Assembly (NCBI GenBank): GCA_951812955.1
Contig: OX638340.1
Location: 3,360,001-3,424,000, forward strand
Source: an uncultured Gemmatimonadota bacterium
Lineage (GTDB): Bacteria > JAAXHH01
Length of the DNA stretch: 64,000 bases
Direction: 5' to 3'
Shown here: positions 2,505 to 62,863 of the stretch, piece after piece
Numbering within the stretch: the first letter of the stretch is position 1
Layout: every line of letters begins with the position of its first letter
Translations under genes and position numbers: made by a program
Notes under the pieces: model-generated
What the model saw: only the letters and a program-made list of their open reading frames with translations
Database searches by the model: none
What the model was told of the DNA's origin: nothing

Positions 2505-4802
2505 TCAGGCTTCCGTCCTGCCCTTCAAAGGAGCCGTCCTCCCCTTCAGGCTTCCGGCCCCACGCGTACGAGCGCGTTTCGAGCCGTTGTTGACCCTGAC
2601 CGTTTCACAGGCCTGTTCGTATAATTCCCTCTGAGACTGTAAACGACTACCCGCCTTCTTCACGTACCGGTACGTTCCATCCGACTGCAATTCCCGCGCC
2701 TTCACGTTGTCCTTCAACTGGATTTTCAAATACGCCCACAGTTCCGCCTGGAGCGCACGGTCGACGACCGGGAAGGAAACTTCAACGCGCCGGTTGAGAT
2801 TCCGGTCCATCCAGTCCGCGCTGGAAAAGTAATACTCCGGGTCTCCGTCGTTGTAGAAATAGAAGAGGCGGACGTGTTCGAGAAACCGGTCGACGATGCT
2901 GATGACGCTGATGTTCTCGCTCAGACCCGGAACACCTGGTCTCAGGCAGCATATGCCCCGAATGATCAGCTGAATCTGCACGCCGGCCTGTGACGCCTGG
3001 TACAGCTCGACGATCATGTCCGGGTCGACGAGCGAATTGATCTTGGCGATTATGAGGGCCGGCTGGCCGTTTCGGGCCCGCTCGCTTTCCCTCCGCAGCC
3101 TTTTAACCATGTCCTCCCGCATCGACGTGGGAGAAAGGATGAGGTGGTGAAAGTGCTTGGGCAGCGCGTAACCCGTCAGCAGGTTGAACAACTGCGTTAC
3201 GTCCTCGCCGAATTCCTCCTTGTCCGTGAACAGGCCGAAATCGGCGTATATCCGTGCCGTCTTGTCGTTGTAATTCCCCGTGCCCAGGTGACAGTAGCGG
3301 TGAATTGCGTCGCCTTCGCGGCGCACCACCAGGCAGGCCTTGCAATGGACCTTTATGCCTGGTATGCCGTAGATGACGTGGGCCCCCGCTTCCTCGAGCT
3401 GCCTTGCCCACTGGATGTTCGCCGCCTCGTCGAACCGGGCCTTCAATTCCAGCAGCACCGATACTTCCTTGCCGTTTTCCGCCGCCCGGGTCAGCGCCCG
3501 TGTAATCGGCGAGTTTGCGCTCACTCGGTACAGCGTCATCTTGATGGCGAGCACGCTGGGGTCTTCCGCCGCTTCCGAAACGAAACGGACTACCGCGTTG
3601 AACTGATGGAAGGGGTGGTGCAGCAGGATGTCTTCCTTCTTGATGGCGTCCCATATGGAAGGGGCTCCCTCGAAGGACATCGCCGGCTGGGGCGGGAAGG
3701 GTTCGTCCATGAGATCCGGCCGGTCGATGGCATCGTAGAACTCGATGAGATCGGAAAAGGCGGTGAAACCCTCCGTGGGGTAAAGGTCCTCCTGCTCCAG
3801 TTCCAGTTCGTCCACCAGGATGTCCAGGACGCGGGTGGATAACTCCGGATCGTACTGCAGCCGGACGGCAGCCCCGTTTCGCCGGTTTCTTATGCCCTCC
3901 TCGATGACCGTCAGCAGGTCCTCCGCGCCTTCCTCCTCGTAGTCCACGTCGGCGTCCCGCGTCACGCGGATCGACGCGCAGTTCAGCACCTCGTAGCCGT
4001 TGTAGAACAGGTCGAGGTTCATGAGGATGACGTCCTCCAGCATGAAGAACGCCTGCCGGCCGTTCTCGGACGGTAGTTCGAGGAATCGCGGCATGACGGA
4101 TGTGGGCAGGTGGATGACTGAAAGGTTTGTGTGGGGAAAGACGGACCGCTGGATCTTCCGGATTTCAGCCACCAGGCAGAGCGTGCCGTTGGCCAGGTAG
4201 GGAAAGGGATGTCCCGGGTCTACCGCCAGCGGGGTCACCACGGGCAGTATGGTCTTCCGGAAGTACTCGTCCAGGTAGGCCTTCTGCGAAGGGCTGAGCT
4301 GTTCGGGCTTGAGTATGTCGATGCCCTGCTCGGTGAGCTGCGGGAAGATCTCGTTGATGAACAAGCCGTGCTGCTTGTTGACCAGTTCGTGCATCCTGGC
4401 CGAAAGGGCGGTCATCACCTCTCTGGGACTCAGGCCGTCCGCGGTCCGCGTGGATTGGATCTGCGCATCGATCTGTCTTTTGACGCCGGCGACGCGGATC
4501 ATGAAGAATTCGTCCAGATTGGTACTGAATATGGCCAGGAACTTCACTCGTTCCAGCAGGGGCACCGACGGATCGAGCGCTTCCTCGAGCACCCGCGCGT
4601 TGAACTCCATCCAGCTGAGTTCCCGGTTGAAGAAGTGCTCCGGGCGCCAGTAGTTCGTCACCAGCGGTGCCGTGGACGGCCGGGGCTTTCGGGTGAAGCG
4701 CCGGCCGGCTCGCTTAGAGGCGATGGTTCGAACCGTTGCGGTCCTGGCGTTGTTTCTTTTTGCAGTTGGCATTACCAGGTCACCAGAGATGATTGCGGAC
4801 AT
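2505..4802 (-). CDS. ppk: Polyphosphate kinase 1 (the true start may be an internal codon; N-terminus is ~40 aa longer than E. coli PPK)
   Basis: Canonical PPK1 N-domain NRELSWMEFNARVLEEA...VKFLAIFSTNLDEFFMIRVAG and PLD-like C-domains, along 765 aa. Confidence 0.9.
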   Translation of the reverse strand: MSAIISGDLVMPTAKRNNARTATVRTIASKRAGRRFTRKPRPSTAPLVTNYWRPEHFFNRELSWMEFNARVLEEALDPSVPLLERVKFLAIFSTNLDEFFMIRVAGVKRQIDAQIQSTRTADGLSPREVMTALSARMHELVNKQHGLFINEIFPQLTEQGIDILKPEQLSPSQKAYLDEYFRKTILPVVTPLAVDPGHPFPYLANGTLCLVAEIRKIQRSVFPHTNLSVIHLPTSVMPRFLELPSENGRQAFFMLEDVILMNLDLFYNGYEVLNCASIRVTRDADVDYEEEGAEDLLTVIEEGIRNRRNGAAVRLQYDPELSTRVLDILVDELELEQEDLYPTEGFTAFSDLIEFYDAIDRPDLMDEPFPPQPAMSFEGAPSIWDAIKKEDILLHHPFHQFNAVVRFVSEAAEDPSVLAIKMTLYRVSANSPITRALTRAAENGKEVSVLLELKARFDEAANIQWARQLEEAGAHVIYGIPGIKVHCKACLVVRREGDAIHRYCHLGTGNYNDKTARIYADFGLFTDKEEFGEDVTQLFNLLTGYALPKHFHHLILSPTSMREDMVKRLRRESERARNGQPALIIAKINSLVDPDMIVELYQASQAGVQIQLIIRGICCLRPGVPGLSENISVISIVDRFLEHVRLFYFYNDGDPEYYFSSADWMDRNLNRRVEVSFPVVDRALQAELWAYLKIQLKDNVKARELQSDGTYRYVKKAGSRLQSQRELYEQACETVRVNNGSKRARTRGAGSLKGRTAPLKGRTEA

Positions 4803-5067
4803 GCGGCGCGTGACGGTCTCGCGCGCACTACCGCATCACGAATGCTGTTCAGATGTCAGCGGACCGGACGGGACCGGATTGGGCCAGACCGGGCCGGATC
4901 AATATGAATTGCGCCCCGGTCCGAGTAACAATAAAGCGGGACGCAAGGCGATGTTGTCAAGCCGTCTTTACCCTGTCGATCGTGTCTAACAAGAAAAATG
5001 CACATTAGTCATATCGTCATTGCGCCGTCATGGTTTTGTCATTCGACATCGTTATAATAAGCCGTGA

Positions 5068-5613
5068 ATGAACGAAGAACTGACAAAGAATCGTGGAGAA
5101 GTCATGCAAAAGAGTCGTGGCGAAGTCATGAAAATGAATGAAGTGTTGGATGTACTTAAAGGAAGCCTGGCCAAGGTAGACGGCATGAAGTTCTTGCTGG
5201 ACTACGAGGATCTCATCTGGCGCATGGCGCCGAACGCCCAATCCGTACAGGCGTTGCTGGAAGATATGGTCGACGCGGAACAGCAACTCTGGTCCGCCCT
5301 GCTGCCAGGGTGCCTGGAATCCCGGCAACGCCGCATCTTTCAAGATCGTCTCCGCGAACGGAATCGATTCTGGCAAAAGAACGACAACCGCCTCGGCATT
5401 TTCAACCAGTTTCTCAGCAACCGGCGCATTACGCTGCTTCTGCTCGAAGATTTAGCGGGAAATGACTGGAACAGGAATGCCCCCGACGGAATGGATGAAG
5501 GATCCGTCGTCGACCAGGTCGATCGCCTGATCGAGCGCCAGAACCAGTGCCTTACCATGATCCAGGGGATACTGAACGAGCGGTTCGAAGCAATGAAGAA
5601 AAGCGCCGTATGA
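5068..5613 (+). CDS. Hypothetical soluble protein (181 aa) inside an AT-rich patch; N-terminus has two copies of a 24-nt repeat (KNRGEVMQ/KSRGEVMK), so several in-frame SD+ATG starts exist
   Basis: ORF with GGAG-like SDs before the ATGs at 5068, 5104 and 5128. No recognisable domain. Local GC is clearly lower than the ~65% flanks. Confidence 0.4.
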   Translation: MNEELTKNRGEVMQKSRGEVMKMNEVLDVLKGSLAKVDGMKFLLDYEDLIWRMAPNAQSVQALLEDMVDAEQQLWSALLPGCLESRQRRIFQDRLRERNRFWQKNDNRLGIFNQFLSNRRITLLLLEDLAGNDWNRNAPDGMDEGSVVDQVDRLIERQNQCLTMIQGILNERFEAMKKSAV

Positions 5614-5671
5614 GGAACCTGGTGTCTACCACCCGATCTCCGGGAATCACGCCATCAATAAACTCTGTCCT

Positions 5672-5727
5672 TGTCATGGCCTTGTATGCTGTTCGTCACA
5701 GAATCGTCAAACAACCTCTTTATAATG
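5672..5727 (+). promoter_or_regulatory. Pho-box-like direct repeats (TTGTCAT / TTGTATG / TCGTCAC at 11-bp phasing) followed by a perfect TATAAT, about 90-145 bp upstream of the TonB receptor gene
   Basis: Heptads begin at 5672, 5683 and 5694 (11-bp period, TGTCA core as in the E. coli CTGTCAT Pho box). TATAAT at 5722-5727. Confidence 0.35.
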
Positions 5728-5816
5728 CCCGTGTCAATCATGTCTATCATACCAGACTCTCGCATAAAACACGCCTGCAATCGGGTTCATAGAACACAAA
5801 CAGAGGGAGATGCCGC

Positions 5817-8759
5817 ATGACGAATGTCTACCTGTTCTGCAATAACCGGATCTCGAAAACCGGGCCGGGCCGTGTGGCCAGGTCGATGCTCGTCGCAGTG
5901 ATCGCCGTCGCGGTCCTGGTGGGCGCGGCCGCGGAGGCCGGCGCACAGCAGTCCGTGGGCCGCATATCCGGAACGATAGTCGACGCGGAGACCGGCGATT
6001 CCCTGATCGGCGCGACGGTGATGGTGGTGGGACTCGAACTTGGCGCGATGGCCGATCTTGAAGGCGCCTTTCTCATCCGAAACGTCCCCGCCGGCCGGCA
6101 CACCATCCTGGTATCCATGATCGGGTACGGGCAGAAGCGGGTCACCGAGATCCAGGTCGACCCCGGACAGGTGAGTCGAATAGACATCGCCGTCGAGCAG
6201 GAACTTCTCGTGGCGGACGTGGTTGAGGTGACGGCCCGGGCCCTGGAAAACACGGAAGCGGCGCTTCTGAAGCGCCGTCAAAACGCCCTTTCCATCAGTG
6301 ACGCCATCAGCGCGGAGGATATCTCGCGGGGCGCACAGGGCGACGTGGCCGCGGCCATGACCCGCGTCACCGGCGCGTCGGTGGTGGACGGCAAGTACGT
6401 CTACATTCGAGGTCTGGGCGAACGGTACAGCACCGCGCAGTTGAACGGCACGACCTTGCCGAGTACCGATCCCAACAGCCAGTCGGTGCAGATGGATATC
6501 TTCGCGACGAACCTGCTGGACAACATCACCACGGAGAAGTCCTTTACGCCGGACAAACCGGGCAACTTCACCGGCGGCAGCGTCAACGTCAAGACCAAGT
6601 CGCTTCCCGAGTCCTTCACCATGTCTTTCTCCACGTCCACGAAATACAACTCCCAGTCTTCCTTCAAGGACATGTTGAGTTACGACGGCGGTGAATACGA
6701 TTTCCTGGGCTTCGACGACGGCACCCGGGATATACCCCTGCCCCTTCAGAATCCCGAGTTGGATATACCCAGCATTACCAGTGCGTTCCGGGACCCGGAA
6801 GCCGCCCAGTTGCTGGATCTCTATTCCAAGTCGTTCGCAGATAAGTCGATGACGCCGACCACAATAAAAGGCGGACTCGGTCAGAGCTACTCATTTTCGA
6901 TGGGAAACCAGACGACGGTTTTCGACCGCCCGTTCGGGATGTTGGGAAGCGTGAGTTACAATCGAAACATTTCGGCGTACGAGAACGGCGTTTCCGGTAT
7001 ATGGAAACGCGTGTCCAGGGAATCCGAGGGGCTGAACAGAGAGCGGTTCGCCACGGACATGAGCGGTTCCGAGGAGGTGCTCTGGGGCGGACTGTTAAAC
7101 GCCACCTACCAACCGAGCATCACGCACGAAATCGGCGCCAACGTGCTATACAATCGCAGCGGTGAGAAGCTGTCCAGGTTTCAAACCGGCGCCTGGCCTT
7201 CCTCCCTGCCCGGCGACAACGTTCGGTACGAGACCCGCGTGCTGTCCTTCATCGAGCGTGAAATGCGTTCCCTGCAGTTCCGCGGCAAACATGTCCTTCC
7301 GTCCGTATCCAACATGGAAATCGAGTGGACCGGCGCTTTCATCAGGTCTACGCAGGACGAACCGGACCTGCGCTACTTCACCAACGAGTTCCGGACGGTC
7401 GACGCGGCCGGCGAAGGAACTCCGGAAGTGGACAGCTATACAATCGCGCTCTCGAACTACGCGGCACCGACGCGATACTTCAGGAATCTGGAAGAATCGA
7501 ACAGGGACTTCAGGCTGGACCTGACGCTGCCTTTCTCCCAGTGGTCCGGACAAACCGCCCGCCTCAAGGTAGGCGGCGCATACCTGGACAAGGACCACAC
7601 CTTCCGCGAGAGACGCTTTTCCTTCTTCCAGGACGACTTGCAGTACAGGAACGATCCATCAGTCTTCTTTTCCTCCGATCGCACCGGGATACTGCCGGCC
7701 GAGCTCCAAACCACCCCCGGCTTTACCCGGTTCGGGAATTTCGTGTCCGAGGATTCCAAACTCAGAAACAATTACGACGGTGATCAGCAAATCGGCGCCG
7801 GTTACCTGATGCTGGACCTGCCGCTCAGCAGGCAACTCAAGGTCGTTGGCGGCGTCCGCTACGAGTCCACCCTGCTGGACGTGGTCAGCCACGACGATTT
7901 GCTTTCGCCAGGCAGCATGGACGAGAAGGACTGGCTACCGTCGATGAACGTGGTGTACCAGGTCGTGGACGACATGAATGTACGAGGCGCTTTCAGCCGT
8001 ACCCTGGCCAGACCTTCGTTCCGCGAACTTGCGCCGTTCGCTTCCTTCCTCTTCGTCGGCGACTACACTTTCGTCGGCAACAGCGAGTTGAAGCGAACCC
8101 TTATCGAGAATTACGATCTCCGCTGGGAGTGGTTTTCACGGCCCGGCGAGATATACGCCCTCAGCTATTTTTACAAGAAGTTCGAAAACCCGATCGAGCG
8201 CGTGATTGTAACCACGAACGGCGAAATCCAGTTTCAGAATGTCGACAATGCATATGTTACGGGCGTGGAAATGGAATTCCGGAAGCAGCTCGACCAGGTC
8301 CATCCGTTTTTGAGCAACTTCCAGATCGGCGGAAATCTCTCCCTGGTCAGGTCCCAGGTGGATATCGCGCAGTCGGAACTCGCCATTATTCGAGCTCTCG
8401 ATCCAACCGCCGGGGACTCCCGAAAATTGCAGGGCCAGTCACCCTACGTGGTAAATATCGATGCCATGTACGACAACCTCGATACCGGGACCCTGGTCAG
8501 CGTTCATTACAACGTGTTCGGCGAAAGACTTGCCGAGGTCAGCACGGGCGGAACGCCGAACGCCTTCGAGCAGCCCGCGGGCATGCTCGATTTCACGGGC
8601 TCGCAGCGGCTCGGAGACCGGGTGACGCTGAAGTTTTCGGCCAAGAACCTCCTCGATCCCGACATCAAGAAAGTCCATCCCTTCAACAACGCGGAGTTCA
8701 TCCGCAGCCTCTACAAGCGGGGAAGAACGTTTACCCTGGGTCTCTCATACGGGATATAG
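5817..8759 (+). CDS. TonB-dependent outer-membrane receptor, SusC-like architecture (CarboxypepD_reg N-domain + plug + 22-strand barrel)
   Basis: SD GAGGGAG before the ATG at 5817. Signal peptide ...AVLVGAAAEAGAQQ. CarbopepD_reg segment ISGTIVDAETGDSLIGATVMVVG...AFLIRNVPAGRHTILVSMIGY. Plug segment VVDGKYVYIRGLGERYSTAQLNG. Barrel ends ...FTLGLSYGI. Confidence 0.8.
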   Translation: MTNVYLFCNNRISKTGPGRVARSMLVAVIAVAVLVGAAAEAGAQQSVGRISGTIVDAETGDSLIGATVMVVGLELGAMADLEGAFLIRNVPAGRHTILVSMIGYGQKRVTEIQVDPGQVSRIDIAVEQELLVADVVEVTARALENTEAALLKRRQNALSISDAISAEDISRGAQGDVAAAMTRVTGASVVDGKYVYIRGLGERYSTAQLNGTTLPSTDPNSQSVQMDIFATNLLDNITTEKSFTPDKPGNFTGGSVNVKTKSLPESFTMSFSTSTKYNSQSSFKDMLSYDGGEYDFLGFDDGTRDIPLPLQNPELDIPSITSAFRDPEAAQLLDLYSKSFADKSMTPTTIKGGLGQSYSFSMGNQTTVFDRPFGMLGSVSYNRNISAYENGVSGIWKRVSRESEGLNRERFATDMSGSEEVLWGGLLNATYQPSITHEIGANVLYNRSGEKLSRFQTGAWPSSLPGDNVRYETRVLSFIEREMRSLQFRGKHVLPSVSNMEIEWTGAFIRSTQDEPDLRYFTNEFRTVDAAGEGTPEVDSYTIALSNYAAPTRYFRNLEESNRDFRLDLTLPFSQWSGQTARLKVGGAYLDKDHTFRERRFSFFQDDLQYRNDPSVFFSSDRTGILPAELQTTPGFTRFGNFVSEDSKLRNNYDGDQQIGAGYLMLDLPLSRQLKVVGGVRYESTLLDVVSHDDLLSPGSMDEKDWLPSMNVVYQVVDDMNVRGAFSRTLARPSFRELAPFASFLFVGDYTFVGNSELKRTLIENYDLRWEWFSRPGEIYALSYFYKKFENPIERVIVTTNGEIQFQNVDNAYVTGVEMEFRKQLDQVHPFLSNFQIGGNLSLVRSQVDIAQSELAIIRALDPTAGDSRKLQGQSPYVVNIDAMYDNLDTGTLVSVHYNVFGERLAEVSTGGTPNAFEQPAGMLDFTGSQRLGDRVTLKFSAKNLLDPDIKKVHPFNNAEFIRSLYKRGRTFTLGLSYGI

Positions 8760-8831
8760 CGCAGAATGACGACTTGCGGGGACGCTCGACCTTTTCAATC
8801 TCAACTGCCAGCTCAATTAAGGAGGAGTAGT

Positions 8832-11800
8832 ATGTTTCGGCGGAATGCCATCGCTGCAATTTTGGTATCGTTGTTTTTACCAGTCCTCGCAGAAGCACAA
8901 TCCAACCCGGTCGTTTCAGTCACAGACTCGGACATCGTGGGTAACGTGACCTTCACGTCGAACAACACGTACCTGCTCTCGGGCCTGGTGTTCGTGGAGG
9001 ATGGCGAGACGCTTACGATCGAACCCGGCACGGTGATCAAGGCGCGTCCGGCGGACGCCGACGGTGTGGTCTCGGCATTGATTGTAGCGCGCGGCGGGAA
9101 GATCTTTGCTGACGGTACGGCGATGGATCCCATCATCTTCACGGCCGAGGCCGACAATGTGGACGATCCGGACGACATCCTGCTCACCTCGGAAGCGGCC
9201 TCGCGGGGGTTGTGGGGCGGCGTGATCATCCTGGGCAGGGCATCGATCAACGCGGCCACGGGCATGAACAACATAGAAGGCATAGACACGACTGAGCCGC
9301 GGGGCATCTACGGCGGCGGCTCGTTCCCCGACGATAACGACAACTCGGGCGTGTTTCGCTACGTGTCGATCCGCCACGGCGGCGCGCGGATCGGAGCGGA
9401 CAACGAGATCAATGGGCTGACGATGGGCGGCGTGGGGCGTGGCACGACGATAGAGCACGTGGAGGTGTTCTACAACCAGGACGACGGGTTCGAGTGGTTC
9501 GGGGGCACGGTGAATACGCGTTACCTGGTGGCGGCCTTTGCCGGCGACGACAGCTTCGACTACGACGAGGGCTTCCGCGGTGAGCACCAGTTCTGGTTCT
9601 CTATCCAGGATCCGGCCGTAGGCGACCACGCCGGCGAGCACGACGGCGGCACCAAGCCGGAGGATGGCAGGCCGTACGCCAGTCCCACGATCCTGAACGC
9701 CACGTACATTGGGCGGGGCGCTTCCTCGATGGGGGGCAAGGCGAATAACGCCCTGATCTTCCGCGACAACGCGGGGGGCATGTATTTCAACAGCATCTTC
9801 ACCGAGTTCCAGGGCCGGATGCTGTCGATCGAGGACCTCGAGGGCAATGCGGGCACGGACAGCCGCGCGCGTCTTGAGGCCGGCGACCTTGCGTTCCAAA
9901 ACAACATCCTGGGTGCCTTCGGCGCGGGCAACACGCCATCGCAACTCGCCGCCGAGTCCGAGGATCACACGGCCATGGTGCTTTCAGATCCCGGGAACAT
10001 GATCCGAATCGTAGATCCACAATTGCAGGGCATCAACTGGAACCGCAACCGGGGGCTGGACCCACGACCCGGTACCAACAGTCCTGCCTGGGATGCGAGC
10101 CAGCTCAAGGAAGAACCCCGGAACACCGGGTTCTTTACGGACGTCGATTACGCAGGGGCATTCGGTACGGAAAACTGGGCGGCGGACTGGTCGGCCCTCG
10201 CGGACCTGGGCTATTTCAGCACCGCACCTCCACCCGAGCCGCCGGAGCCCGGGGTTGTTACTGTCACAGACTCGGACATCGTGGGTAACGTGACCTTCAC
10301 GTCGAACAACACGTACCTGCTCTCGGGCCTGGTGTTCGTGGAGGATGGCGAGACGCTTACGATCGAACCCGGCACGGTGATCAAGGCGCGTCCGGCGGAC
10401 GCCGACGGCGTGGTCTCGGCATTGATTGTAGCGCGCGGCGGGAAGATCTTTGCCGACGGTACGGCGATGGATCCCATCATCTTCACGGCCGAGGCCGACA
10501 ATGTGGACGATCCGGACGACATCCTGCTCACCTCGGAAGCGGCCTCGCGGGGGTTGTGGGGCGGCGTGATCATCCTGGGCAGGGCATCGATCAACGCGGC
10601 CACGGGCATGAACAACATAGAAGGCATAGACACGACTGAGCCGCGGGGCATCTACGGCGGCGGCTCGTTCCCCGACGATAACGACAACTCGGGCGTGTTT
10701 CGCTACGTGTCGATCCGCCACGGCGGCGCGCGGATCGGAGCGGACAACGAGATCAATGGGCTGACGATGGGCGGCGTGGGGCGTGGCACGACGATAGAGC
10801 ACGTGGAGGTGTTCTACAACCAGGACGACGGGTTCGAGTGGTTCGGGGGCACGGTGAATACGCGTTACCTGGTGGCGGCCTTTGCCGGCGACGACAGCTT
10901 CGACTACGACGAGGGCTTCCGCGGTGAGCACCAGTTCTGGTTCTCTATCCAGGATCCGGCCGTAGGCGACCACGCCGGCGAGCACGACGGCGGCACCAAG
11001 CCGGAGGATGGCAGGCCGTACGCCAGTCCCACGATCCTGAACGCCACGTACATTGGGCGGGGCGCTTCCTCGATGGGGGGCAAGGCGAATAACGCCCTGA
11101 TCTTCCGCGACAACGCGGGGGGCATGTATTTCAACAGCATCTTCACCGAGTTCCAGGGCCGGATGCTGTCGATCGAGGACCTCGAGGGCAATGCGGGCAC
11201 GGACAGCCGCGCGCGTCTTGAGGCCGGCGACCTTGCGTTCCAAAACAACATCCTGGGTGCCTTCGGCGCGGGCAACACGCCATCGCAACTCGCCGCCGAG
11301 TCCGAGGATCACACGGCCATGGTGCTTTCAGATCCCGGGAACATGATCCGAATCGTAGATCCACAATTGCAGGGCATCAACTGGAACCGCAACCGGGGGC
11401 TGGACCCACGACCCGGTACCAACAGTCCTGCCTGGGATGCGAGCCAGCTCAAGGAAGAACCCCGGAACACCGGGTTCTTTACGGACGTCGATTACGCAGG
11501 GGCATTCGGTACGGAAAACTGGGCGGCGGACTGGTCGGCCCTCGCGGACCTGGGCTATTTCAGCACCGCACCTCCACCCGAGCCGCCGGAGCCCGGGGAA
11601 CCGGAAGAAGAAGCGCCGGACGCGTTCAGCCTGTCGCAGAACAGTCCGAACCCCTTCGGCATGACCACGAATATAGAGTACGCAGTATCTTCGACGAGCC
11701 ACATACTGATCGAGGTGTACAACATTCGGGGCCAGCGGGTAGCCATGGTCGTTAACGATATCAGGCTTCCGGGGCAGTACTCGGAGATATGGGACGCTCA

Positions 11801-11897
11801 GCACCTTTCAAGCGGCGTATATTTCTACCGCTTCGAGGCTACGGCGGATGGGCGGACCGCCCACGTTTTTAACAGGAAGATGACGCTTCTGAAGTGA
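8832..11897 (+). CDS. T9SS-secreted protein (1021 aa): signal peptide, two near-identical 448-aa modules of unknown function, and a Por-secretion C-terminal sorting domain
   Basis: Strong SD AAGGAGG before the ATG at 8832. Signal peptide MFRRNAIAAILVSLFLPVLAEA. C-terminus LSQNSPNPF...HILIEVYNIRGQRV...SGVYFYRFEA matches the TIGR04183-type T9SS CTD. The internal modules carry no recognisable catalytic motif. Confidence 0.75.
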   Translation: MFRRNAIAAILVSLFLPVLAEAQSNPVVSVTDSDIVGNVTFTSNNTYLLSGLVFVEDGETLTIEPGTVIKARPADADGVVSALIVARGGKIFADGTAMDPIIFTAEADNVDDPDDILLTSEAASRGLWGGVIILGRASINAATGMNNIEGIDTTEPRGIYGGGSFPDDNDNSGVFRYVSIRHGGARIGADNEINGLTMGGVGRGTTIEHVEVFYNQDDGFEWFGGTVNTRYLVAAFAGDDSFDYDEGFRGEHQFWFSIQDPAVGDHAGEHDGGTKPEDGRPYASPTILNATYIGRGASSMGGKANNALIFRDNAGGMYFNSIFTEFQGRMLSIEDLEGNAGTDSRARLEAGDLAFQNNILGAFGAGNTPSQLAAESEDHTAMVLSDPGNMIRIVDPQLQGINWNRNRGLDPRPGTNSPAWDASQLKEEPRNTGFFTDVDYAGAFGTENWAADWSALADLGYFSTAPPPEPPEPGVVTVTDSDIVGNVTFTSNNTYLLSGLVFVEDGETLTIEPGTVIKARPADADGVVSALIVARGGKIFADGTAMDPIIFTAEADNVDDPDDILLTSEAASRGLWGGVIILGRASINAATGMNNIEGIDTTEPRGIYGGGSFPDDNDNSGVFRYVSIRHGGARIGADNEINGLTMGGVGRGTTIEHVEVFYNQDDGFEWFGGTVNTRYLVAAFAGDDSFDYDEGFRGEHQFWFSIQDPAVGDHAGEHDGGTKPEDGRPYASPTILNATYIGRGASSMGGKANNALIFRDNAGGMYFNSIFTEFQGRMLSIEDLEGNAGTDSRARLEAGDLAFQNNILGAFGAGNTPSQLAAESEDHTAMVLSDPGNMIRIVDPQLQGINWNRNRGLDPRPGTNSPAWDASQLKEEPRNTGFFTDVDYAGAFGTENWAADWSALADLGYFSTAPPPEPPEPGEPEEEAPDAFSLSQNSPNPFGMTTNIEYAVSSTSHILIEVYNIRGQRVAMVVNDIRLPGQYSEIWDAQHLSSGVYFYRFEATADGRTAHVFNRKMTLLK
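8919..11606 (+). repeat. Direct tandem duplication, 2 x 1344 bp (copy A 8919-10262, copy B 10263-11606), >99.8% identical over 1336 bp
   Basis: Identical antisense ORFs appear at a 1344-nt offset in the ORF track (8916-9968 vs 9984-11312; 9560-9934 vs 10904-11278). Aligning the plus-strand text by eye finds two mismatches, both synonymous: GGT/GGC near 9075/10419 and GCT/GCC near 9109/10453; the alignment was not checked base by base. Confidence 0.9.
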
Positions 11898-12099
11898 TCC
11901 TGAAGCCGGCATAGTGGGCCGCAACCGGTATACTTCACCGATGCGGACCGTTCAGAGAGTCGATTGGGGCCTCGCGTATGTACTTATGCGGGGCCCTGTT
12001 GTTTTATACGGCGTTCCGCCGGGGTTGACGCGGTACGGGGCCACATCTATTTTTAACACGTTGCCCCCATTGTATCAATCCACTATCCAGGACTATCGG

Positions 12100-13230
12100 A
12101 TGACTGATCGCGCCCGGGGACGCCGGATTGACCGGCGCCGTCTGCTGGACTTACTGTTCGGTCGCCTGGCCGCACTGGGCGGTATTGCGCTGATACTGAC
12201 CATACTGGCGGTCTTTGCCGTGATACTGTGGGTCATTTACCCCTTGTTCCTGTCGCCCGCGGAATACCGCTGGGATACCCCCGGTCCCGATGGAATCGAG
12301 TCCGGATACGGCATCCTGCCCCTGATCTTCGGGACCCTGAAAGGCGCGGTGTACACCCTGCTTTTTGCGGTGCCCGTTTCGGTGCTCGCCGCGCTCTACG
12401 CGTCGCAGTTTCTGCCACGGTCGCTGAAGGAAAACCTGAAACCGCTGGTGGAAATCATGGCCGCGGTGCCGAGCGTCGTGCTCGGATTTATCGGCGGCAT
12501 ATGGCTCGCACCGTTCCTGGCGTCCCACGTTTTCGCACTCTTCCTCGCGCCGGTATTTATCGCAGGCACCGTTTTGACCGCTTTTCTGGTCAGACACCAT
12601 GCCCCGGTCCGGTTTCTGGTATTTAATCATCCGGGCAGGGAATTCTGGCTGCTCCTGGCCGCCGTGTTGGCCGGGGGATGGCTGGCCCTGGAATGCGGGG
12701 CGTTGCTTGAGGCCGCCTATCTGCATGCGGGCTACGAAACGTGGCTTGAAGAATCCCTGGGACTGACCTACGAGGAACGAAACGCGATTGTCGTGGGTAT
12801 GGTCATGGGGCTGGCGGTGACCCCGATCATATTCACCATATCCGAGGAAGCGCTTTCCGCTGTGCCCCGTTCGTTTTCTGAAGGATCCATGTCGCTGGGG
12901 GCCTCACGCTGGCAGACCGCCATACGCATCGTCCTTCCCGCCGCGGGCGCCGGGATCCTGTCCGCCGTCCTGCTGGGATTCAGCAGGGCGATCGGGGAGA
13001 CCATGATCGTGCTGTTTGTTTCGGGCAATGTCCCGGCCATGGACTGGTCCGCTTTCTCCGGGTTCAGGGCGCTGTCCGCCAACGTAGCGCTCGAATTGCC
13101 GAACGCTGCGCGGGACGACAGCCTCTACCGGGTCCTGTTTTTCGCCGCCTTTCTCCTCCTCGTTTCGACTTTTGCGATTAACATCGTGGCCGAACTGGTT
13201 CGACGACGACTGAGACGGCGGTATGCCTAA
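12100..13230 (+). CDS. pstC: Phosphate ABC transporter permease PstC (the ORF-track GTG at 11914 is an alternative start)
   Basis: Collinear with E. coli PstC: GILPLIFGTLKGAVYTLLFAVPVSVLAALYASQF...PLVEIMAAVPSVVLGFIGGIW, plus the EAA loop ...ASRWQTAIRIVLPAAGAGI. Confidence 0.85.
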   Translation: MTDRARGRRIDRRRLLDLLFGRLAALGGIALILTILAVFAVILWVIYPLFLSPAEYRWDTPGPDGIESGYGILPLIFGTLKGAVYTLLFAVPVSVLAALYASQFLPRSLKENLKPLVEIMAAVPSVVLGFIGGIWLAPFLASHVFALFLAPVFIAGTVLTAFLVRHHAPVRFLVFNHPGREFWLLLAAVLAGGWLALECGALLEAAYLHAGYETWLEESLGLTYEERNAIVVGMVMGLAVTPIIFTISEEALSAVPRSFSEGSMSLGASRWQTAIRIVLPAAGAGILSAVLLGFSRAIGETMIVLFVSGNVPAMDWSAFSGFRALSANVALELPNAARDDSLYRVLFFAAFLLLVSTFAINIVAELVRRRLRRRYA

Positions 13231-13265
13231 GCGCCGGGCGGTCCGCCCGCACGCAAGGAGATACG

Positions 13266-14693
13266 ATGGGTTCGAAGTGGTCAAAGGATGACGCCTTGAT
13301 CTGGTTGTCCGGGGGGGGTCTGGTCCTCGGCTGCCTGATGGTGGCGGGACTGTTCCTGGTGATCGTCGTACATGGACTGGACCGGTTCTGGCCCCAGGAC
13401 CTGACACGGTACACGCTGCACGACGGCGGGGTTGTCCTGGGCCACGAGGCGTCCCGTGAGGACGTACTTACAACCAACGCCAGGGGTGAGCGTTCTGTGG
13501 CATACCGTTTGAGGATCCGGACCGGTGACCGGGACCGGTATCCGGACGACTACGTCTGGCTGGAGGAAGGCCGCGTCACTTGGCGGGATGTCCCACGCGA
13601 GGCCGTGGTGGTGGAACAGGTTCGGGGCGGGGACTTATTCGGATTCCTGGATTCCTTCGTGGACGATGGCACGGTCGTCGCCCTGGGTTACGATGACGTC
13701 TGGGCACTTTACCAGGAGGGGTACCCGGAACTGGAACGGCTGCGCCGGCAGAGGTCGCTTTCTATCGTCCTGTCTTCGGCGGATGGCCGGCCGAGCACCA
13801 TTTCACTTGCTGACGTCCAGCGGATCTATACGCCAAATGCGATGACGGCGTGGACAAGGATCCGCCACTATATGGCCAGTGCGTGGTCCTACCTGTGGGC
13901 GCCCCCGCGGGACGAAAACCGCCAGGGCGGGGTCTTTCCTGCTGTCTTCGGCACGGCGGCGATGGTCATCCTCATGTCGGTCGTTGTCATGCCCTTCGGC
14001 GTGCTCGCGGCCTTCTACCTGAGAGAATACGGAAAACCGGGTCCGTTCCTGAACGCGGTACGTATCGCCGTAAACAGCCTGGCCGGAGTGCCGTCCATCG
14101 TCTTCGGGGTTTTCGGGCTCGGTTTCTTCGTGTATTTTGTGGGAGGCATCCTGGACCGTCAGTTCTTCCCGGAGGCACTTCCGGGACCGACATTCGGCCG
14201 GGGCGGCATCCTCTGGTGCTCACTGACCCTGGCCTTGCTCACATTGCCCGTGGTCATCGTGGCCGTGGAGGAAGGCCTGGCCGCCGTGCCATCGGGACTC
14301 CGCGAAGCGTCCCATGCCCTGGGTGCGACGCGGTTCGAGACGCTTTGGCGCGTCGTCGTACCCGTGGTGCTGCCATCCATTCTCACGGGTCTGATCCTGT
14401 CCGTGGCGCGGGCGGCCGGTACCGTGGCGCCGCTCATGATCGCCGGGGTCGTCGCCTTTTCTGCCGATTTGCCCGTGGACGGCGAATGGCCGTTCGTGCA
14501 CCTGGATCGCGAGTTCATGCACCTGGGATTTCATATCTTCGACACCGGTTTCAGGCCCGGCGAAGGAGATGCGGCGCTATCCATGGCCTACACTTCCACC
14601 CTGTTGCTGCTGGCCATCGTGGTCGCACTGAACGCGGCGGCGATCGGGCTCAGAAGCCGGTTGAGGAGACACTATTCGCTGGCCGCGCCATAG
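13266..14693 (+). CDS. pstA: Phosphate ABC transporter permease PstA (long form with a large periplasmic insert)
   Basis: C-terminal half matches PstA ([14 protein letters not shown]...[40 protein letters not shown]). Six TM segments. Follows pstC. Confidence 0.85.
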
Positions 14694-14766
14694 GCGTACC
14701 CGGTCCGCGTACGATCCCGATCCGCGGCATACGAGATCCCGGTCCGCTTACAAGAGGTATAATCGC

Positions 14767-15564
14767 ATGACGATGGAAAATGCGCCGTTCACGCCGAAGA
14801 TCATGCGCGAAGAAACAATCATCGATGTCGAGAACGTGTCCTTCTGGTACGGGGACAGGGCCGCGCTGAGGAACGTTTCCATGGCGATCGATCGCCATGT
14901 CATCACGGCCTTCATCGGACCGTCAGGCTGCGGCAAGACGACATTGCTGCGGCTGTTCAACCGCATGAACGACCTGGTTCCCCAGACCCGCATGACGGGA
15001 TCGATCCGGATGAACGGAGCAGACATCTACGGCCCGGATACCGACGTCACGCGTCTGCGCCGGCGCGTGGGCATGGTCTTCCAGCAACCGAATCCCTTTC
15101 CCAAGTCGATCTATGAGAACGTAGCCTATGGCCCCCGAATCCATGGGGTGAAGTCCGGGGAATTTCTCGACGAGATCGTGGAACGGTGCCTGCGAAGGAC
15201 GGTGCTGTGGGACGAGGTTCAGGATCGGCTCGAAGAAAGCGCGCTCAAACTCTCCGCCGGACAACAGCAACGGCTTTGTATCGCGCGGGCGGTCGCCGTC
15301 GAACCGGAAGTCCTGCTCATGGACGAGCCGTGCTCGTCACTGGACCCGGTCGCCACGTCCAGGATCGAGGAATTAATGCTTGATCTGAAGGATGATTACA
15401 CCATTGTTATCGTGACACACAATATGCAGCAGGCAGCGCGTGTGTCGGAATACACCGGGTTCATGCTCAAGGGCGAACTGGTGGAAATGGGTGTGACCGA
15501 CGTGATGTTCACCACGCCGGGGGACCGGCGCACGGAGGATTACATTACGGGTCGTGCGGGATAG
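14767..15564 (+). CDS. pstB: Phosphate ABC transporter ATP-binding protein PstB
   Basis: Walker [10 protein letters not shown], signature [15 protein letters not shown], Walker [12 protein letters not shown], and a PstB-type C-terminus. Confidence 0.92.
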
Positions 15565-15595
15565 CGACCCGTGATACTGACCGAATAAGGCGACC

Positions 15596-16300
15596 ATGGA
15601 GACCCACCTTCAGCAACAACTGGAAGACCTGAAATCCGCCCTGCTGAGGATGGCGGCGCTGGTCGAGGAACAGATCGCGCGGTCGATTACCGCTATGATG
15701 GAGCGGGACGTGGAATTGTGCGACCAGGTCATCCGCGGAGATCAGCCCATTGACGCCATGGAACTGGAGATCGACGATCAGTGTATCAGGTTGCTTGCTC
15801 TCCAGCATCCCATCGCGCGGGACCTTCGCTTCGTTGCGGCCAGCATGAAGATTACGATCGACCTGGAACGGTTGGGCGACATCGCAGTCAACATCGCCAA
15901 GAAAACGAAACGGCTCGTGGGGATGCCCCTCCTGAAACCGATCGTCGACATTCCGCGCATGGCCGAAATGTCCCAGTCCATGGTGAAGGACAGCCTCAAC
16001 GCCTTCGTCCGCGGAGACGAGCAACTGGCCGTGGACGTCTGCGTAAGGGACGAAGCGGTAAATCAACTGCAGGACCAGGTCTTCCAGGATCTGGTGACTG
16101 CCATGGTGGAAGATTCGGCGACGGTGCCCCAGGCGCTCCAGTTGATCTTCATATCCCGCCACGTCGAACGGCTCGCAGATCACGCCACGAACATCGCCGA
16201 AGGGGTGGTGTATTTCTCAGAAGGCCGCGTGATCAAGCATCATGGGAATGACGATCCGAATCAGCCACCCAATCGTCCAGTATCCGGTGGGCCTGCGTGA
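15596..16300 (+). CDS. phoU: Phosphate signalling complex protein PhoU
   Basis: Two PhoU repeats (...RDLRFVAASMKITIDLERLGDIAVNIAKK... and ...ISRHVERLADHATNIAEGVVY). Directly downstream of pstB. Confidence 0.88.
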   Translation: METHLQQQLEDLKSALLRMAALVEEQIARSITAMMERDVELCDQVIRGDQPIDAMELEIDDQCIRLLALQHPIARDLRFVAASMKITIDLERLGDIAVNIAKKTKRLVGMPLLKPIVDIPRMAEMSQSMVKDSLNAFVRGDEQLAVDVCVRDEAVNQLQDQVFQDLVTAMVEDSATVPQALQLIFISRHVERLADHATNIAEGVVYFSEGRVIKHHGNDDPNQPPNRPVSGGPA

Positions 16301-17764: not shown

Positions 17765-18053
17765 ACGGATCGGTTCGGCCGATTGCGGATGTATTCGACG
17801 TTCCGACCGGCGCCGGACACGATGCGTGCAGTATCCGAGCCGTCCTTTACGATCTCCGACCCGGACACGGCCCGTTCCCAACCCGCCGCCCCGGGAACGC
17901 GCTAAGGCATCGGTCCGCGTAAGCCGGCCGCTGGCCGTCATCTGGGTGTCCCTTCAGAATTTTCTATATCTAATCATTGACACGTGTATATTATAACTAT
18001 ATATTTAGCCTAGTCTAAAAATAGAGAGGTTATTGCACCGGTTATAAACACAA

Positions 18054-19223
18054 ATGAATCGATACGACAGAATACTTCTCTCGATAGCCGTTGCGCTCCT
18101 GGCGGCCATCCGGGTGGATCCAGCCGCGGCGCAGGACGCGTCAGTTGAAGCAGAGCCGGGTCTTATTCCCGGTCACATCGAAGTCGGCGGCGTGGTGCAA
18201 CTTTCGGCATCCCACGAACAGTCGTACGGAGGCGGAAGCACCACGTCCACCGCCGCCGAGCAACTGGAACTCGGGATCGGGATCGAACTGCACGAGTGGG
18301 TTGGAACCGAGGTCATCTGGATCCACGAACATGAAGACGAGGAAGCCGGCGACGAGCATGGACACGACCTGGGATTCTTGACGGCCACGGTCATTGTCGG
18401 TCCCCACGAAGGCTCCTGGTGGCTAAAGGGCGGGGTGCAATTCCTGCCCTTCACCCTATTCGAACTCGCCAGTGTGCACGCCGTACACGACGCGACCATT
18501 GGACCCTTCGAGTCGGCCGCGATCGTCGACCCGTTGTCCTTCGAGTACGGAGAAAAGCTGGAGAAATCGTTGCAGCTGGGGGTTTCGGTGGGTCAATTCG
18601 AAGGAAGTCTCTTCGGTTTCTACGGTGACGACCCACGGTCGTCCGGCAACAGGGCTGGATACGGTGCTGCGATCGGGTACAAGGATGCCCTGGACAGTGG
18701 TCCCGAATTCGCGGTAAACGTTTCTTTCATCGATGATCTCGGCGGACTGGATCTTTTCGCGGAGGAGCTATTCGATGAATCAGGGGCGGCAGATGGAGCG
18801 CACCAACGCACCGACGCGAACGAAGATGACCGTGTTCCCGGCTGGGCGGCGGCCACGCAGCTTGCGTTTCAGTACCTGACGGTTACGGGTGAATTCATGA
18901 TTGCCCAGGACCGGTTCAGTCCCTCGGTACTAACATTCGGTGACCGGGGGGCCCGGCCTTCGGTATGGGTACTCGAGGCTGGTTTCGCCTTCGAGTTGGC
19001 GGGTAGATCGGGAGAAGTCGTAGTGGCAAGCCACGGGACCTCGGAAGCGGCCGGCCTGGCCCTGCCCGCGACGCGATTCGTGGCGGCTCTCAACGTCGAC
19101 CTGTGGAACGAGAGGCTGATCGGCACCGTCGAATGGGTACGTGACAGCGACTACGGGACGTCGCACGACGGCACCGGTGGAGTCTTGAATACATACACCG
19201 CTCAATTGGGCATGGAATTCTAA
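18054..19223 (+). CDS. Outer-membrane beta-barrel protein, porin-like (candidate phosphate/anion porin by context)
   Basis: Signal peptide MNRYDRILLSIAVALLAAIRVDPAAAQ. Alternating amphipathic strands. C-terminal ...YTAQLGMEF ends with the aromatic residue typical of OM barrels. AT-rich promoter-like region 17941-18053 upstream. Confidence 0.5.
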   Translation: MNRYDRILLSIAVALLAAIRVDPAAAQDASVEAEPGLIPGHIEVGGVVQLSASHEQSYGGGSTTSTAAEQLELGIGIELHEWVGTEVIWIHEHEDEEAGDEHGHDLGFLTATVIVGPHEGSWWLKGGVQFLPFTLFELASVHAVHDATIGPFESAAIVDPLSFEYGEKLEKSLQLGVSVGQFEGSLFGFYGDDPRSSGNRAGYGAAIGYKDALDSGPEFAVNVSFIDDLGGLDLFAEELFDESGAADGAHQRTDANEDDRVPGWAAATQLAFQYLTVTGEFMIAQDRFSPSVLTFGDRGARPSVWVLEAGFAFELAGRSGEVVVASHGTSEAAGLALPATRFVAALNVDLWNERLIGTVEWVRDSDYGTSHDGTGGVLNTYTAQLGMEF

Positions 19224-19787: not shown

Positions 19788-20312
19788 TCACCCGCCTTCC
19801 GGTTTCGGCATGACGGCGCCGCAAATCTTGCAGGTCCGGTTCTCCTCGCTGCTGAAGAACCGGTTCATGACGGGCGGCAACTGGCTGACGATGTCTTCCA
19901 GTTCGAAACGTTCCTCGTAGAGTTTTTTCCCGCAGCTTTCGCAGTACCACATGAAACCGTCGATCTCACCGCTTCTGCGCCTGGTCTCCATTACCAGGCC
20001 TACGGTATCGGCCGGCCTCTGGGGCGAGTGCGGCACGCCGGCGGGCAGCAGGAAGATCTCGCCTTCCCGGATCGGGACGTCCACCGGTTTCCCGTCCTCG
20101 ATGATCTTCAGTATGATGTCCCCCTCCACCTGATAGAAAAACTCCTCGCCCTCGTTGTAGTGGTAGTCCTTTCGGGCGTTCGGTCCGCCGACTACCATGA
20201 CGATGAAGTCTTCCGCCTCCGTGTAAACGCACTGGTTGCCGACCGGGGGTTTGAGGAGGTGCCTGTGTTCGTCTATCCAGGCCTTGAAGTTGAAAGGAGC
20301 CGTTACCGGCAT
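19788..20312 (-). CDS. nbaC: 3-hydroxyanthranilate 3,4-dioxygenase (HAAO/NbaC)
   Basis: Collinear with bacterial and eukaryotic HAAO: KPPVGNQ...DYHYNEGEEFFYQVEGD...IREGEIFLLPAGVPHSPQR. C-terminal rubredoxin-like CxxC...CxxC. Confidence 0.88.
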   Translation of the reverse strand: MPVTAPFNFKAWIDEHRHLLKPPVGNQCVYTEAEDFIVMVVGGPNARKDYHYNEGEEFFYQVEGDIILKIIEDGKPVDVPIREGEIFLLPAGVPHSPQRPADTVGLVMETRRRSGEIDGFMWYCESCGKKLYEERFELEDIVSQLPPVMNRFFSSEENRTCKICGAVMPKPEGG

Positions 20313-20328
20313 GATCGAACCTCCTTTT

Positions 20329-20742
20329 TCAGATGGTGGCGATGCACTTCAGTTCGATGGCGATTTTGGTCGGCAGGCGCGAAACGCCGACCGTGGTGCG
20401 GCAGGGCTGGTTGTTCTTGAAATACTCGCGGTAGACCCGGTTGAACACGGCGAAGTCCGCCTCCATGTCGGTGAGGTACACGGTAATGTCCACGAGGTGC
20501 TCCCAGTCACTGCCCGCGTCTTCGAGGATACTGCGGACATTGCGGAACACGGAGTGGCACTGCGCCTCGATATCGTAGGACTCGACCTCTCCGTCCGGCC
20601 CCAGCGTCACGCCCGGGATATCCTGCCGGCCCCTGGCCCGGGGCCCGATACCCGAAAGAAACAGCAGGTTCCCCACCCGGCGGGCATGGGGGTAGGGTCC
20701 GACAGGTTCGGGCGCGCGGTCGGAATCATAATGCGGATGCAA
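20329..20742 (-). CDS. RidA/YjgF-family protein, probable 2-aminomuconate deaminase
   Basis: RidA fold signature (...PVGPYPHARRVGNLLFLSG...TVYLTDM...). Sits between the AMSDH and HAAO genes, as in nbaF/amnD-type clusters. Confidence 0.7.
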   Translation of the reverse strand: MHPHYDSDRAPEPVGPYPHARRVGNLLFLSGIGPRARGRQDIPGVTLGPDGEVESYDIEAQCHSVFRNVRSILEDAGSDWEHLVDITVYLTDMEADFAVFNRVYREYFKNNQPCRTTVGVSRLPTKIAIELKCIATI

Positions 20743-20790
20743 AGATAGCCTCCAATTCGACCTGCAATGCCTGGTTCCGCATAAAATCTC

Positions 20791-22230: not shown

Positions 22231-22339
22231 TTGCAGAGAGAACCGTCGGGAATGCTGTGTCAGAGACGTCAGGTACGAGCCGCCTCGCAGGGTAACCGGT
22301 AATGTAGACCTGGCCGGACGGCCTGTCAAGCCGGGGGCC

Positions 22340-58968: not shown

Positions 58969-58975
58969 GGTCGGC

Positions 58976-62583: not shown

Positions 62584-62863
62584 TGTTCTTTCGGACACCC
62601 CGGTTCTCGCTCCTTTGCTTGCGTCATAAGCAGATGTCCGCATGCTAATCGCGTCGTTTTTTCGCGGCGTCGAATAATAACAAAGGGTCTTACGCCGTGT
62701 CAAGTCTGTAATCGCGGAACCAGCGAAATTACTTGACATAACGGCTAAAATAGCATAGTTTTATAGACTGAAATACCTTAGAGAATTCTGCTCATGTTGC
62801 ACAATCTTTGGATTGGTTCACCTGCCTTAGGGACTGGTCCATCTACCTCGTGACGAGTCCGGT

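Follow-up and report, generated by a model that had tools for sequence, protein, structure and literature searches.

A probable Pho-regulated phosphorus-scavenging operon joining a TonB-dependent receptor and a two-module beta-helix protein to pstCAB-phoU

A 64,000-nucleotide stretch of DNA from an uncultured Gemmatimonadota bacterium (contig OX638340.1, positions 3,360,001 to 3,424,000; hereafter the window, with a G+C content of ~62%) contains a run of co-oriented genes in which a TonB-dependent receptor and a large beta-helix protein precede pstC, pstA, pstB and phoU. We consider it probable that this locus is a PhoB-controlled phosphorus-scavenging envelope operon of a bacterium of the Fibrobacterota-Chlorobiota-Bacteroidota (FCB) group, and that its first two genes encode a multi-module form of the ElpS/FI-FII/BT4056-type cassette, anchored by the type IX secretion system (T9SS). 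Systems of this kind, consisting of a TonB-dependent transporter (TBDT) and a beta-helix protein, have already been described; what is new is that the form seen here is multi-module and T9SS-anchored, that its modules have recently and repeatedly been duplicated or homogenised, and that it is fused to the pst operon, a linkage that recurs across phyla. The genes of the locus are as follows, with positions counted from the first nucleotide of the window and dN/dS denoting the ratio of nonsynonymous to synonymous substitution rates.

5817-8759, + strand: TonB-dependent receptor, 980 aa, with Pfam CarboxypepD_reg, Plug and TonB_dep_Rec barrel (22-strand-type) domains
8832-11897, + strand: predicted surface beta-helix protein, 1021 aa, with Sec signal (8832-8897), module 1 (8909-10252), module 2 (10253-11596), Pro/Glu linker and T9SS type A C-terminal domain (~11646-11894)
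12100-13230, + strand: pstC, phosphate ATP-binding cassette (ABC) permease, 376 aa; TIGR02138 213 bits, cut-off 196; dN/dS 0.20-0.21
13266-14693, + strand: pstA, phosphate ABC permease, 475 aa; TIGR00974 213 bits, cut-off 193; dN/dS 0.22-0.24
14767-15564, + strand: pstB, phosphate ABC ATPase; TIGR00972 386 bits, cut-off 343
15596-16300, + strand: phoU, phosphate signalling complex protein; TIGR02135 216 bits, cut-off 130

Scans of the window with Pfam and NCBIfam reproduce the gene order and common orientation proposed in an earlier note on this DNA, which was made without database searches; the gap between the receptor and beta-helix genes measures 72 nt and that between the beta-helix gene and pstC 202 nt. 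The pstC, pstA, pstB and phoU genes are in the canonical order and all exceed the NCBIfam equivalog cut-offs. The start of pstC at ATG 12100 is backed by conservation, and that of the beta-helix gene at 8832 by the N-termini of relatives. The receptor gene has a dN/dS of 0.11-0.14, and its best NCBIfam model is TonB-Xanth-Caul with 267 bits (cut-off 310). It had earlier been described as SusC-like, but the SusC/RagA model TIGR04056 gives only 35.8 bits against a cut-off of 368 and covers only residues 50-200 in the N-terminal domain, which rules out membership of the SusC family. Pfam and NCBIfam scans found no SusD domain in the adjoining protein, which instead is a beta-helix with a T9SS tail.

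The 1021-aa protein begins with a Sec signal peptide (MFRRNAIAAILVSLFLPVLAEA) and ends in a C-terminal domain that scores above the cut-offs of both Por_Secre_tail PF18962 (28.1 bits, cut-off 27) and TIGR04183 (28.9 bits, cut-off 23). It thus has the two features of T9SS type A cargo, and would be displayed on the cell surface. The 448-aa repeat reported within it is real, with the two modules (1344 bp each) differing at five DNA positions and sharing 99.6% identity. An AlphaFold2 model of a single module (predicted local distance difference test score 91.6) is a right-handed parallel beta-helix, of the pectin-lyase-like type with ~450 aa per unit, and its best Foldseek match is the polysaccharide lyase family 6 (PL6) enzyme chondroitinase B. 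By sequence, no solved structure matches the protein; the sole match, which concerns the C-terminal sorting domain, is not significant (E 0.56). The earlier note left the protein without a family, but all 120 of the homologues listed, including P0045 (98% identity), have a precomputed match to Pfam PF28492 Beta_helix_4, and the window protein probably belongs there too. The family is very large: scoring 8000 candidates with the window protein gives at least 3804 matches, and a query with the lipoprotein-type protein of locus L078 (Flavobacteriales) gives at least 7995 members, among which no F. johnsoniae or Bacteroides name appears in the matches listed.

Members of the family have one, two or three modules (~573, 980 and 1430 aa respectively), and module number varies even between relatives that are 76-98% identical. 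Given that the two modules of the window protein are 99.6% identical over 1344 bp and that its closest proteins (P0045, 98%; P0050, 96%; P0015, 94%) have a single module, the duplication could be an assembly artefact and the true gene encode one module (573 aa). We regard this as quite improbable, however. Two of the differences (9065 and 9110) are internal and synonymous, and the reading frame is kept; proteins of two or three modules are the rule across the family; and near-identical modules are found in independent assemblies, with DNA identity between the modules of one protein of 100% in L033 and L038, 97% in L004 and 96% in L009, while the relative L001 has three modules at 86% and the corresponding value for L003 is 83%. 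Modules of different lineages share 45-60% amino-acid identity. As likeness within a protein far exceeds that between lineages, the modules have evidently undergone repeated recent tandem duplication or concerted evolution.

About 12 acidic residues are invariant in the module (E127, E170, E189, D195, D196, E199, D217, D218, D221, D223, E247 and D249) and recur at one-coil intervals (170/172, 195-199, 217-223 and 247-249), which suggests that this acidic ladder forms a metal-binding groove. Acidic residues on successive coils are likewise found in the Ca2+/catalytic grooves of pectate and PL6 lyases, and the structural neighbours of the module are mostly enzymes, so the beta-helix protein could itself be a metal-dependent surface phosphohydrolase, phosphodiesterase or lyase that frees phosphate or small phosphorylated products from a polymer, with the receptor importing the released products. 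This is unlikely in our judgement, given that no solved enzyme is more than 14% identical to it, that a match to a catalytic motif was not found, and that NosD and several adhesins have the same fold and are not hydrolases. To our knowledge the fold occurs in no phosphatase. Over-production of ElpS, the Caulobacter crescentus counterpart of the beta-helix protein, does raise extracellular alkaline phosphatase activity, but the authors describe an accessory or indirect role (Le Blastier et al. 2010, PMC2996285).

Two arrays of Pho-box-like heptads, each followed by a TATAAT hexamer, lie upstream of the receptor gene.

5014-5058, + strand: Pho-box array A, TCGTCAT-N4-CCGTCAT-N4-TTGTCAT (5014-5042; three perfect heptads), TATAAT at 5053-5058
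5671-5726, + strand: Pho-box array B, TTGTCAT/TTGTATG/TCGTCAC/TCGTCAA at an 11-bp phase (5671-5710), TATAAT at 5721-5726

The 11-bp-phased heptads and TATAAT of array B had been noticed before and are confirmed here, with the addition of a fourth heptad and of the second, better array A. The two arrays are alike in geometry, the last heptad starting 17 bp and ending 10 bp before TATAAT, and the hexamer of array B lies ~90 nt before the receptor ATG. Both have the organisation of a PhoB promoter, with at least two CTGTCAT-like 7-bp repeats at an 11-bp spacing that replace the -35 element and stand ~10 bp before the -10; this is the geometry of proteobacterial PhoB promoters. They are the sole matches in the window to YYGTCAY-N4-YYGTCAY at no more than one mismatch, and the triple heptad occurs in perfect form only once (array A) and in none of 20 shuffles. 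Array B is kept at -134 to -204 nt from the receptor in L001, L002, L005, L006 and L007 and an A-type array in L001, L002 and L008, and all six close relatives (L001, L002 and L005-L008) have at least one array upstream of the receptor. We predict that PhoB binds both arrays and that the receptor/beta-helix locus is very probably Pho-regulated. In distant phyla, Pho-box-like phased repeats upstream of the pair are enriched about six-fold yet present in only 9 of 61 loci, which is weak evidence, and the motif probably differs between phyla. In the Opitutaceae loci L026 (~6850-6960) and L065, four 11-bp-phased GTCAC/GTAA repeats are found on the opposite strand upstream of the receptor, and may represent a verrucomicrobial form of the PhoB site.

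The association of receptor and beta-helix protein is conserved over a wide phylogenetic range. A genome-collection scan with the beta-helix family yielded 80 loci, the closest of which (81% and 78% identity) carry the label Candidatus Latescibacterota; the label Gemmatimonadetes stands on some protein records of the same clade. In 71 of 84 loci the beta-helix gene has a receptor homologue (30-52% identity) as its neighbour, the exceptions lying mostly at contig ends, and the pairing spans Latescibacterota, Zixibacteria, Ignavibacteriota, Rhodothermales, Bacteroidia, Opitutaceae and Acanthopleuribacter. A tblastn search of plasmids and chromids adds homologues at 25-35% identity in Pseudoalteromonas, Alteromonas, Marinobacter, Indioceanicola, Sphingomonas, Phocaeicola, Parabacteroides and Bacteroides, and these include homologues in Bacteroidales and Proteobacteria that are 30-35% identical (E 1e-43 to 1e-50). 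Three such loci were inspected (Indioceanicola, Pseudoalteromonas and Parabacteroides), and in each a lipoprotein adjoins a homologous TonB receptor (E 1e-61 to 1e-91). Anchoring differs between groups. Latescibacterota, Rhodothermales, Ignavibacteria and others combine a Sec signal with a T9SS C-terminal domain; the proteins of Bacteroidales, Cytophagales and Flavobacteriales are single-module lipoproteins whose Cys is followed by an acidic stretch; and Opitutaceae and Zixibacteria have other C-termini. In Bacteroidales a small MORN-repeat (YwqK-like) protein is regularly encoded 3' of the pair (L080, L056, L063, L064, L070 and L087, including Parabacteroides distasonis), and may be a third component there.

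The genes surrounding the pair were surveyed by clustering all those within 5 kb of it in 65 loci other than the close relatives, with flanks that were often truncated. The commonest neighbour is an OmpR-type regulator (17 of 65 loci), for which the best NCBIfam model is PhoB in nine of the ten tested, each below the equivalog cut-off. PhoR-like kinases are found near the pair in seven loci and pstC/A within 5 kb in five; tblastn with PstS queries places pstS nearby in nine (L022, L026, L028, L031, L034, L036, L044, L045 and L054), while L043 shows a fragment and L015 a weak match. In union, 25 of the 65 loci have a PhoB-like regulator and/or Pst genes. In the Bacteroidota metagenome-assembled genome L028 the genes encoding the receptor, the beta-helix protein and Porin_O_P are followed by pstS, pstC, pstA, pstB and phoU, co-directional and with short gaps; L045 (Pontibacter) has the same gene set laid out as a divergon; and in L026 (Opitutaceae), which has two pstS copies, the pair is next to Porin_O_P-pstS-pstCAB-phoU. 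The pair is thus built into a Pst operon or set beside phoBR in Latescibacterota, Bacteroidota, Ignavibacteriota, Zixibacteria and Verrucomicrobiota, which supports the view that receptor and surface protein form a capture and import pair genomically tied to Pst. No phosphatase or substrate clue was found among the recurrent neighbours, which otherwise comprise only lineage-specific housekeeping genes and MORN and major facilitator superfamily proteins.

TonB receptors classically carry metal chelates, and the pair could be importing a metal or metal complex (for example Fe, Ca or Zn for Pho-regulon phosphatases) or a nutrient other than phosphorus, with its proximity to pst reflecting co-regulation or chance. 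The conserved acidic ladder would suit cation binding, a nearby porin matches the LbtU siderophore-porin family, and 40 of the 65 surveyed loci are without a Pho gene nearby. Nonetheless, we find this explanation scarcely credible. The recurrent neighbours are mainly PhoB-like regulators and Pst genes, with no recurring Fur, siderophore or metal-transport genes among them; the only recognisable operators ahead of the operon are Pho boxes; and depletion of inorganic phosphate (Pi) is the reported inducer of the Caulobacter and Flavobacterium counterparts (PMC2996285, PMC8115612).

The junction between the beta-helix gene and pstC contains two further elements.

11965-11998, + strand: terminator-like hairpin, 14-bp stem and T-rich tail
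12025-12053, + strand: sigma-70-like promoter, TTGACG-17-TATTTT

Both sit in an insert of ~175 bp that occurs only in the window and in L001, which are both multi-module, and is absent from the single-module L005, L006 and L007. In these three loci ~25 nt separate the beta-helix stop from the pstC ATG, a gap that indicates an ancestral unit running from the receptor and beta-helix genes into pstCAB-phoU. L002 and L008 have lost pstC and most of pstA and keep the receptor, the beta-helix gene, pstB and phoU; the deletions lie at 11734-12223 in L002 (pstA remnant 11848-12069) and at ~11653-11719 in L008. This loss may reflect decay of the permease or a deletion in assembly, and suggests that the Pst permease is dispensable in this lineage. 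Since these loci keep the pair, it does not depend on this Pst permease.

A pstS gene is absent from the window; the earlier note had reported that none precedes pstC. Pfam scans found no PBP_like_2 (PstS) domain in the large open reading frames (ORFs) of the window, and a PstS hidden Markov model and tblastn, using seven PstS proteins of related loci as queries, found no PstS in the window or within 10 kb of the operon in L001, L002 and L005-L008. In the earlier note it had been proposed that the receptor and T9SS protein substitute for PstS, feeding PstCAB directly with no need of a periplasmic phosphate-binding protein. The slot between pair and pstC, filled by pstS (with a porin) in other phyla, is indeed empty here, and PstA has a large periplasmic loop of ~195 aa between its first and second transmembrane segments (residues 36-231, from hydropathy, without Pfam match). 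We nevertheless regard substitution as very improbable. A type I ABC importer is fed from the periplasm; a T9SS surface protein or an outer-membrane barrel is in the wrong compartment to dock on PstCA and cannot deliver substrate to it. At least nine other loci have both the pair and pstS, and a comparison of synteny across genomes ran contrary to substitution, with L028, L045 and L026 all carrying both the pair and Porin_O_P-pstS-pstCAB-phoU. The long PstA loop was rejected as a built-in substitute because long PstC/PstA proteins are also found in Opitutaceae loci that carry pstS. Purifying selection on pstC and pstA (dN/dS 0.20-0.24) points to a working transporter, which requires a binding protein. 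In Caulobacter the genes are split into phoR, pstCAB-phoUB and pstS, with pstS apart from pstCAB (PMC11208175), and an unlinked pstS is thus the ordinary explanation. The locus does not show an ABC importer running without a binding protein. The wider proposal, of a Pho-regulated relay from surface capture through TonB import to Pst, fares better: Pho regulation is very probable and the pair is tied to Pst, and only the replacement of PstS falls away.

In the phosphorus-scavenging operon that we favour, PhoR would activate PhoB under phosphate limitation, and PhoB would bind the tandem Pho-box promoters at 5014-5058 and 5671-5726. These would drive the receptor and beta-helix genes and, in the ancestral layout, pstC-pstA-pstB-phoU as well. 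Sec and then the type IX secretion system would carry the beta-helix protein out to the cell surface, where we infer that it serves the receptor as a lid that captures substrate. With TonB energy, the receptor would import a phosphorus-containing ligand to the periplasm, and phosphate, either direct or periplasmically released, would enter through PstCAB, with a PstS presumably encoded elsewhere, or through the low-affinity transporter PiT; PstB and PhoU would report back to PhoR. Given the recurrence of the pair in Pst operons or beside phoBR and the lack of a phosphatase alongside, the candidate ligands narrow towards inorganic or condensed phosphate or a compound that gives Pi directly.

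A bolder version, which is possible though on balance unlikely, takes the pair as the outer-membrane stage of Pst itself, in which inorganic phosphate, pyrophosphate or polyphosphate would be captured with high affinity and TonB energy and concentrated in the periplasm for PstS/PstCAB; the ligand would perhaps be a metal complex held on the acidic ladder, and in the extreme form the lineage perhaps lacks PstS altogether. This would explain the repeated fusion of the pair to porin-pstSCAB-phoU or phoBR in unrelated phyla and the absence of a phosphatase alongside.

Several points weigh against the phosphorus-scavenging operon as set out above. Pho control of this organism's operon is a prediction from sequence, and the hairpin and separate promoter of the window and L001 mean that co-transcription with pst may be only partial here. 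Linkage to phosphate genes is frequent and not universal, with 40 of the 65 distant loci having no Pho or Pst gene in the sequence at hand, and no phosphatase or other clue to the ligand lies near the pair. Placement in the ElpS/FI-FII/BT4056 cassette comes from fold, size, synteny and homologues of 30-35% identity in the same taxa, with ElpS, BT4056 and Fjoh_0546 compared by description. The lid role is a prediction, and AlphaFold-Multimer gave few confident contacts between BT4055 and BT4056 (Price and Arkin 2023, bioRxiv 10.1101/2023.03.17.533168).

The remainder of the window contains further phosphate-related genes, of which phoR, ppk1, a porin-like barrel and PiT, all listed in the earlier note, were all found.

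45-1202, + strand: PhoR-like sensor histidine kinase, C-terminal part, gene cut by the left window edge; PnpS 387 bits and PhoR TIGR02966 303 bits (NCBIfam)
2505-4802, - strand: ppk1, polyphosphate kinase, with all four PP_kinase Pfam domains; divergent from the receptor operon
5068-5613, + strand: small ORF between the Pho-box arrays, 169-181 aa; likelier start ATG 5104, preceded by GGAGA
18054-19223: porin of the LbtU family; NCBIfam LbtU siderophore-porin 140 bits, cut-off 90
54416-55678, - strand: PiT-type (PHO4) low-affinity phosphate transporter, Pfam PHO4 408 bits; unlinked

In the relative L002 a PhoB-like response regulator is encoded directly 5' of the PhoR-like kinase gene, and the position of ppk1 is kept in L001, L002 and L005-L008. 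The small ORF has no family match in Pfam or NCBIfam scans and is poorly conserved, being cut to 48 aa in L002 and absent from L001; it lies directly behind array A, at a spacing that would be leaderless-like for a start at ATG 5068, and could be a Pho-regulated gene that is decaying or specific to a lineage. The porin gene has a near-consensus sigma-70 promoter at 17977-18005 and is downstream of dus in all close relatives; BLAST found no similarity between it and the OprO/P-like porins of other pst operons, which are also dissimilar among themselves. A window-wide Pho-box pattern scan found no heptad pair near the PiT gene. A kynurenine/quinolinate-type cluster at 19788-22329 (- strand) encodes a 3-hydroxyanthranilate dioxygenase, a RidA-like protein and an aldehyde (2-aminomuconate-semialdehyde-type) dehydrogenase; its counterpart in L002 (16972-21734) adds an FAD monooxygenase and a kynureninase and stays next to the Pho locus. 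The genes at 57604-62739 (- strand) encode an ABC ATPase, a fusion of an ABC-2 permease with an ABC_transp_aux (GldG-like) domain, and a DUF4340 protein, which look like a GldAFG transporter of the gliding-motility type, consistent with a T9SS-bearing FCB bacterium. The gene at 46280-49087 encodes a 935-aa protein that joins a Ser/Thr protein kinase to PD40/WD40-like beta-propeller repeats.

Pairs of the ElpS/BT4056/FI-FII type are found in hundreds of genera and are among the most strongly phosphate-starvation-induced envelope proteins of Caulobacter and Flavobacterium. A literature search found no functional work on Fjoh_0546, BT4056 or CCNA_00170 beyond three studies (PMC2996285, PMC8115612 and bioRxiv 10.1101/2023.03.17.533168). 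ElpS (CC0170) is a ~50-kDa lipoprotein of Caulobacter crescentus, induced by phosphate starvation and encoded beside the TonB receptor CC0171, which is reported to be constitutively expressed, and a type II secretion system (T2SS) cluster (PMC2996285). In Flavobacterium johnsoniae the TBDTs of PUSIII and PUSIV adjoin the hypothetical lipoproteins FI, FII and FIII, which have a polygalacturonase-like fold and are 31-36% identical to ElpS; on Pi depletion Fjoh_0545 (the TBDT) rises 2^8-fold and Fjoh_0546 (FII) 2^9.9-fold, both genes lying beside phoB and phoR, and no exoprotein is more abundant than FI (45 kDa, beside the TonB receptor Fjoh_3857; Lidbury et al. 2021, PMC8115612). BT4056 of Bacteroides thetaiotaomicron, a member of the pectin-lyase superfamily proposed as the lid of the non-SusC transporter BT4055, is 40% identical to Fjoh_0546 and related to ElpS, and the adjacency is kept in 621 genera (bioRxiv 10.1101/2023.03.17.533168). 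The features described here strongly, though indirectly, indicate that the window pair belongs to the same cassette as ElpS-CC0171, FI/FII and their TBDTs, and BT4055/BT4056, and across this cassette one surface protein would be displayed by three routes, namely a lipid anchor, a T9SS tail and T2SS-assisted release.

The window pair resembles ElpS-CC0171 in having ~50 kDa per module and an adjacent receptor gene, with starvation induction known for ElpS and Pho boxes read here, and the homologue in the alphaproteobacterium Indioceanicola has the exact ElpS layout of lipoprotein, TonB receptor, gspN and gspD. It differs in that ElpS is a T2SS-aided lipoprotein whereas the window protein has a Sec signal, a T9SS C-terminal domain and two modules and is in an operon with pstCAB-phoU. 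As with FI/FII of F. johnsoniae, a beta-helix surface protein is encoded beside a TBDT, and Bacteroidia members of the window family share both the lipoprotein form and the PhoB/PhoR neighbours; those F. johnsoniae strains, however, are without PstSCAB and use a lipid anchor and a single module, in place of the pstCAB-phoU fusion, T9SS domain and two modules found here. BT4055/BT4056 likewise combines a non-SusC TBDT with a surface protein of the pectin-lyase superfamily, in an adjacency that extends broadly and includes Proteobacteria, but the study of that pair noted no Pst linkage, T9SS or multi-module forms, all three of which are present in the window. Relative to a canonical pstSCAB-phoU operon, the order pstC-pstA-pstB-phoU is the same, but the window operon starts with an outer-membrane pair and has no pstS within 64 kb. 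The earlier note drew a likeness to a polysaccharide utilisation locus, and the logic of the locus does resemble that of published Pho-induced outer-membrane systems of Bacteroidota (PMC8115612). PusCD/SusCD-like systems and polysaccharide utilisation loci share with the window locus a surface binder and a TonB transporter under nutrient-specific control, followed by periplasmic or inner-membrane steps, and they differ from it in that here the receptor is not SusC/RagA, its partner is not SusD-like, and no phosphatase or glycoside hydrolase genes lie alongside.

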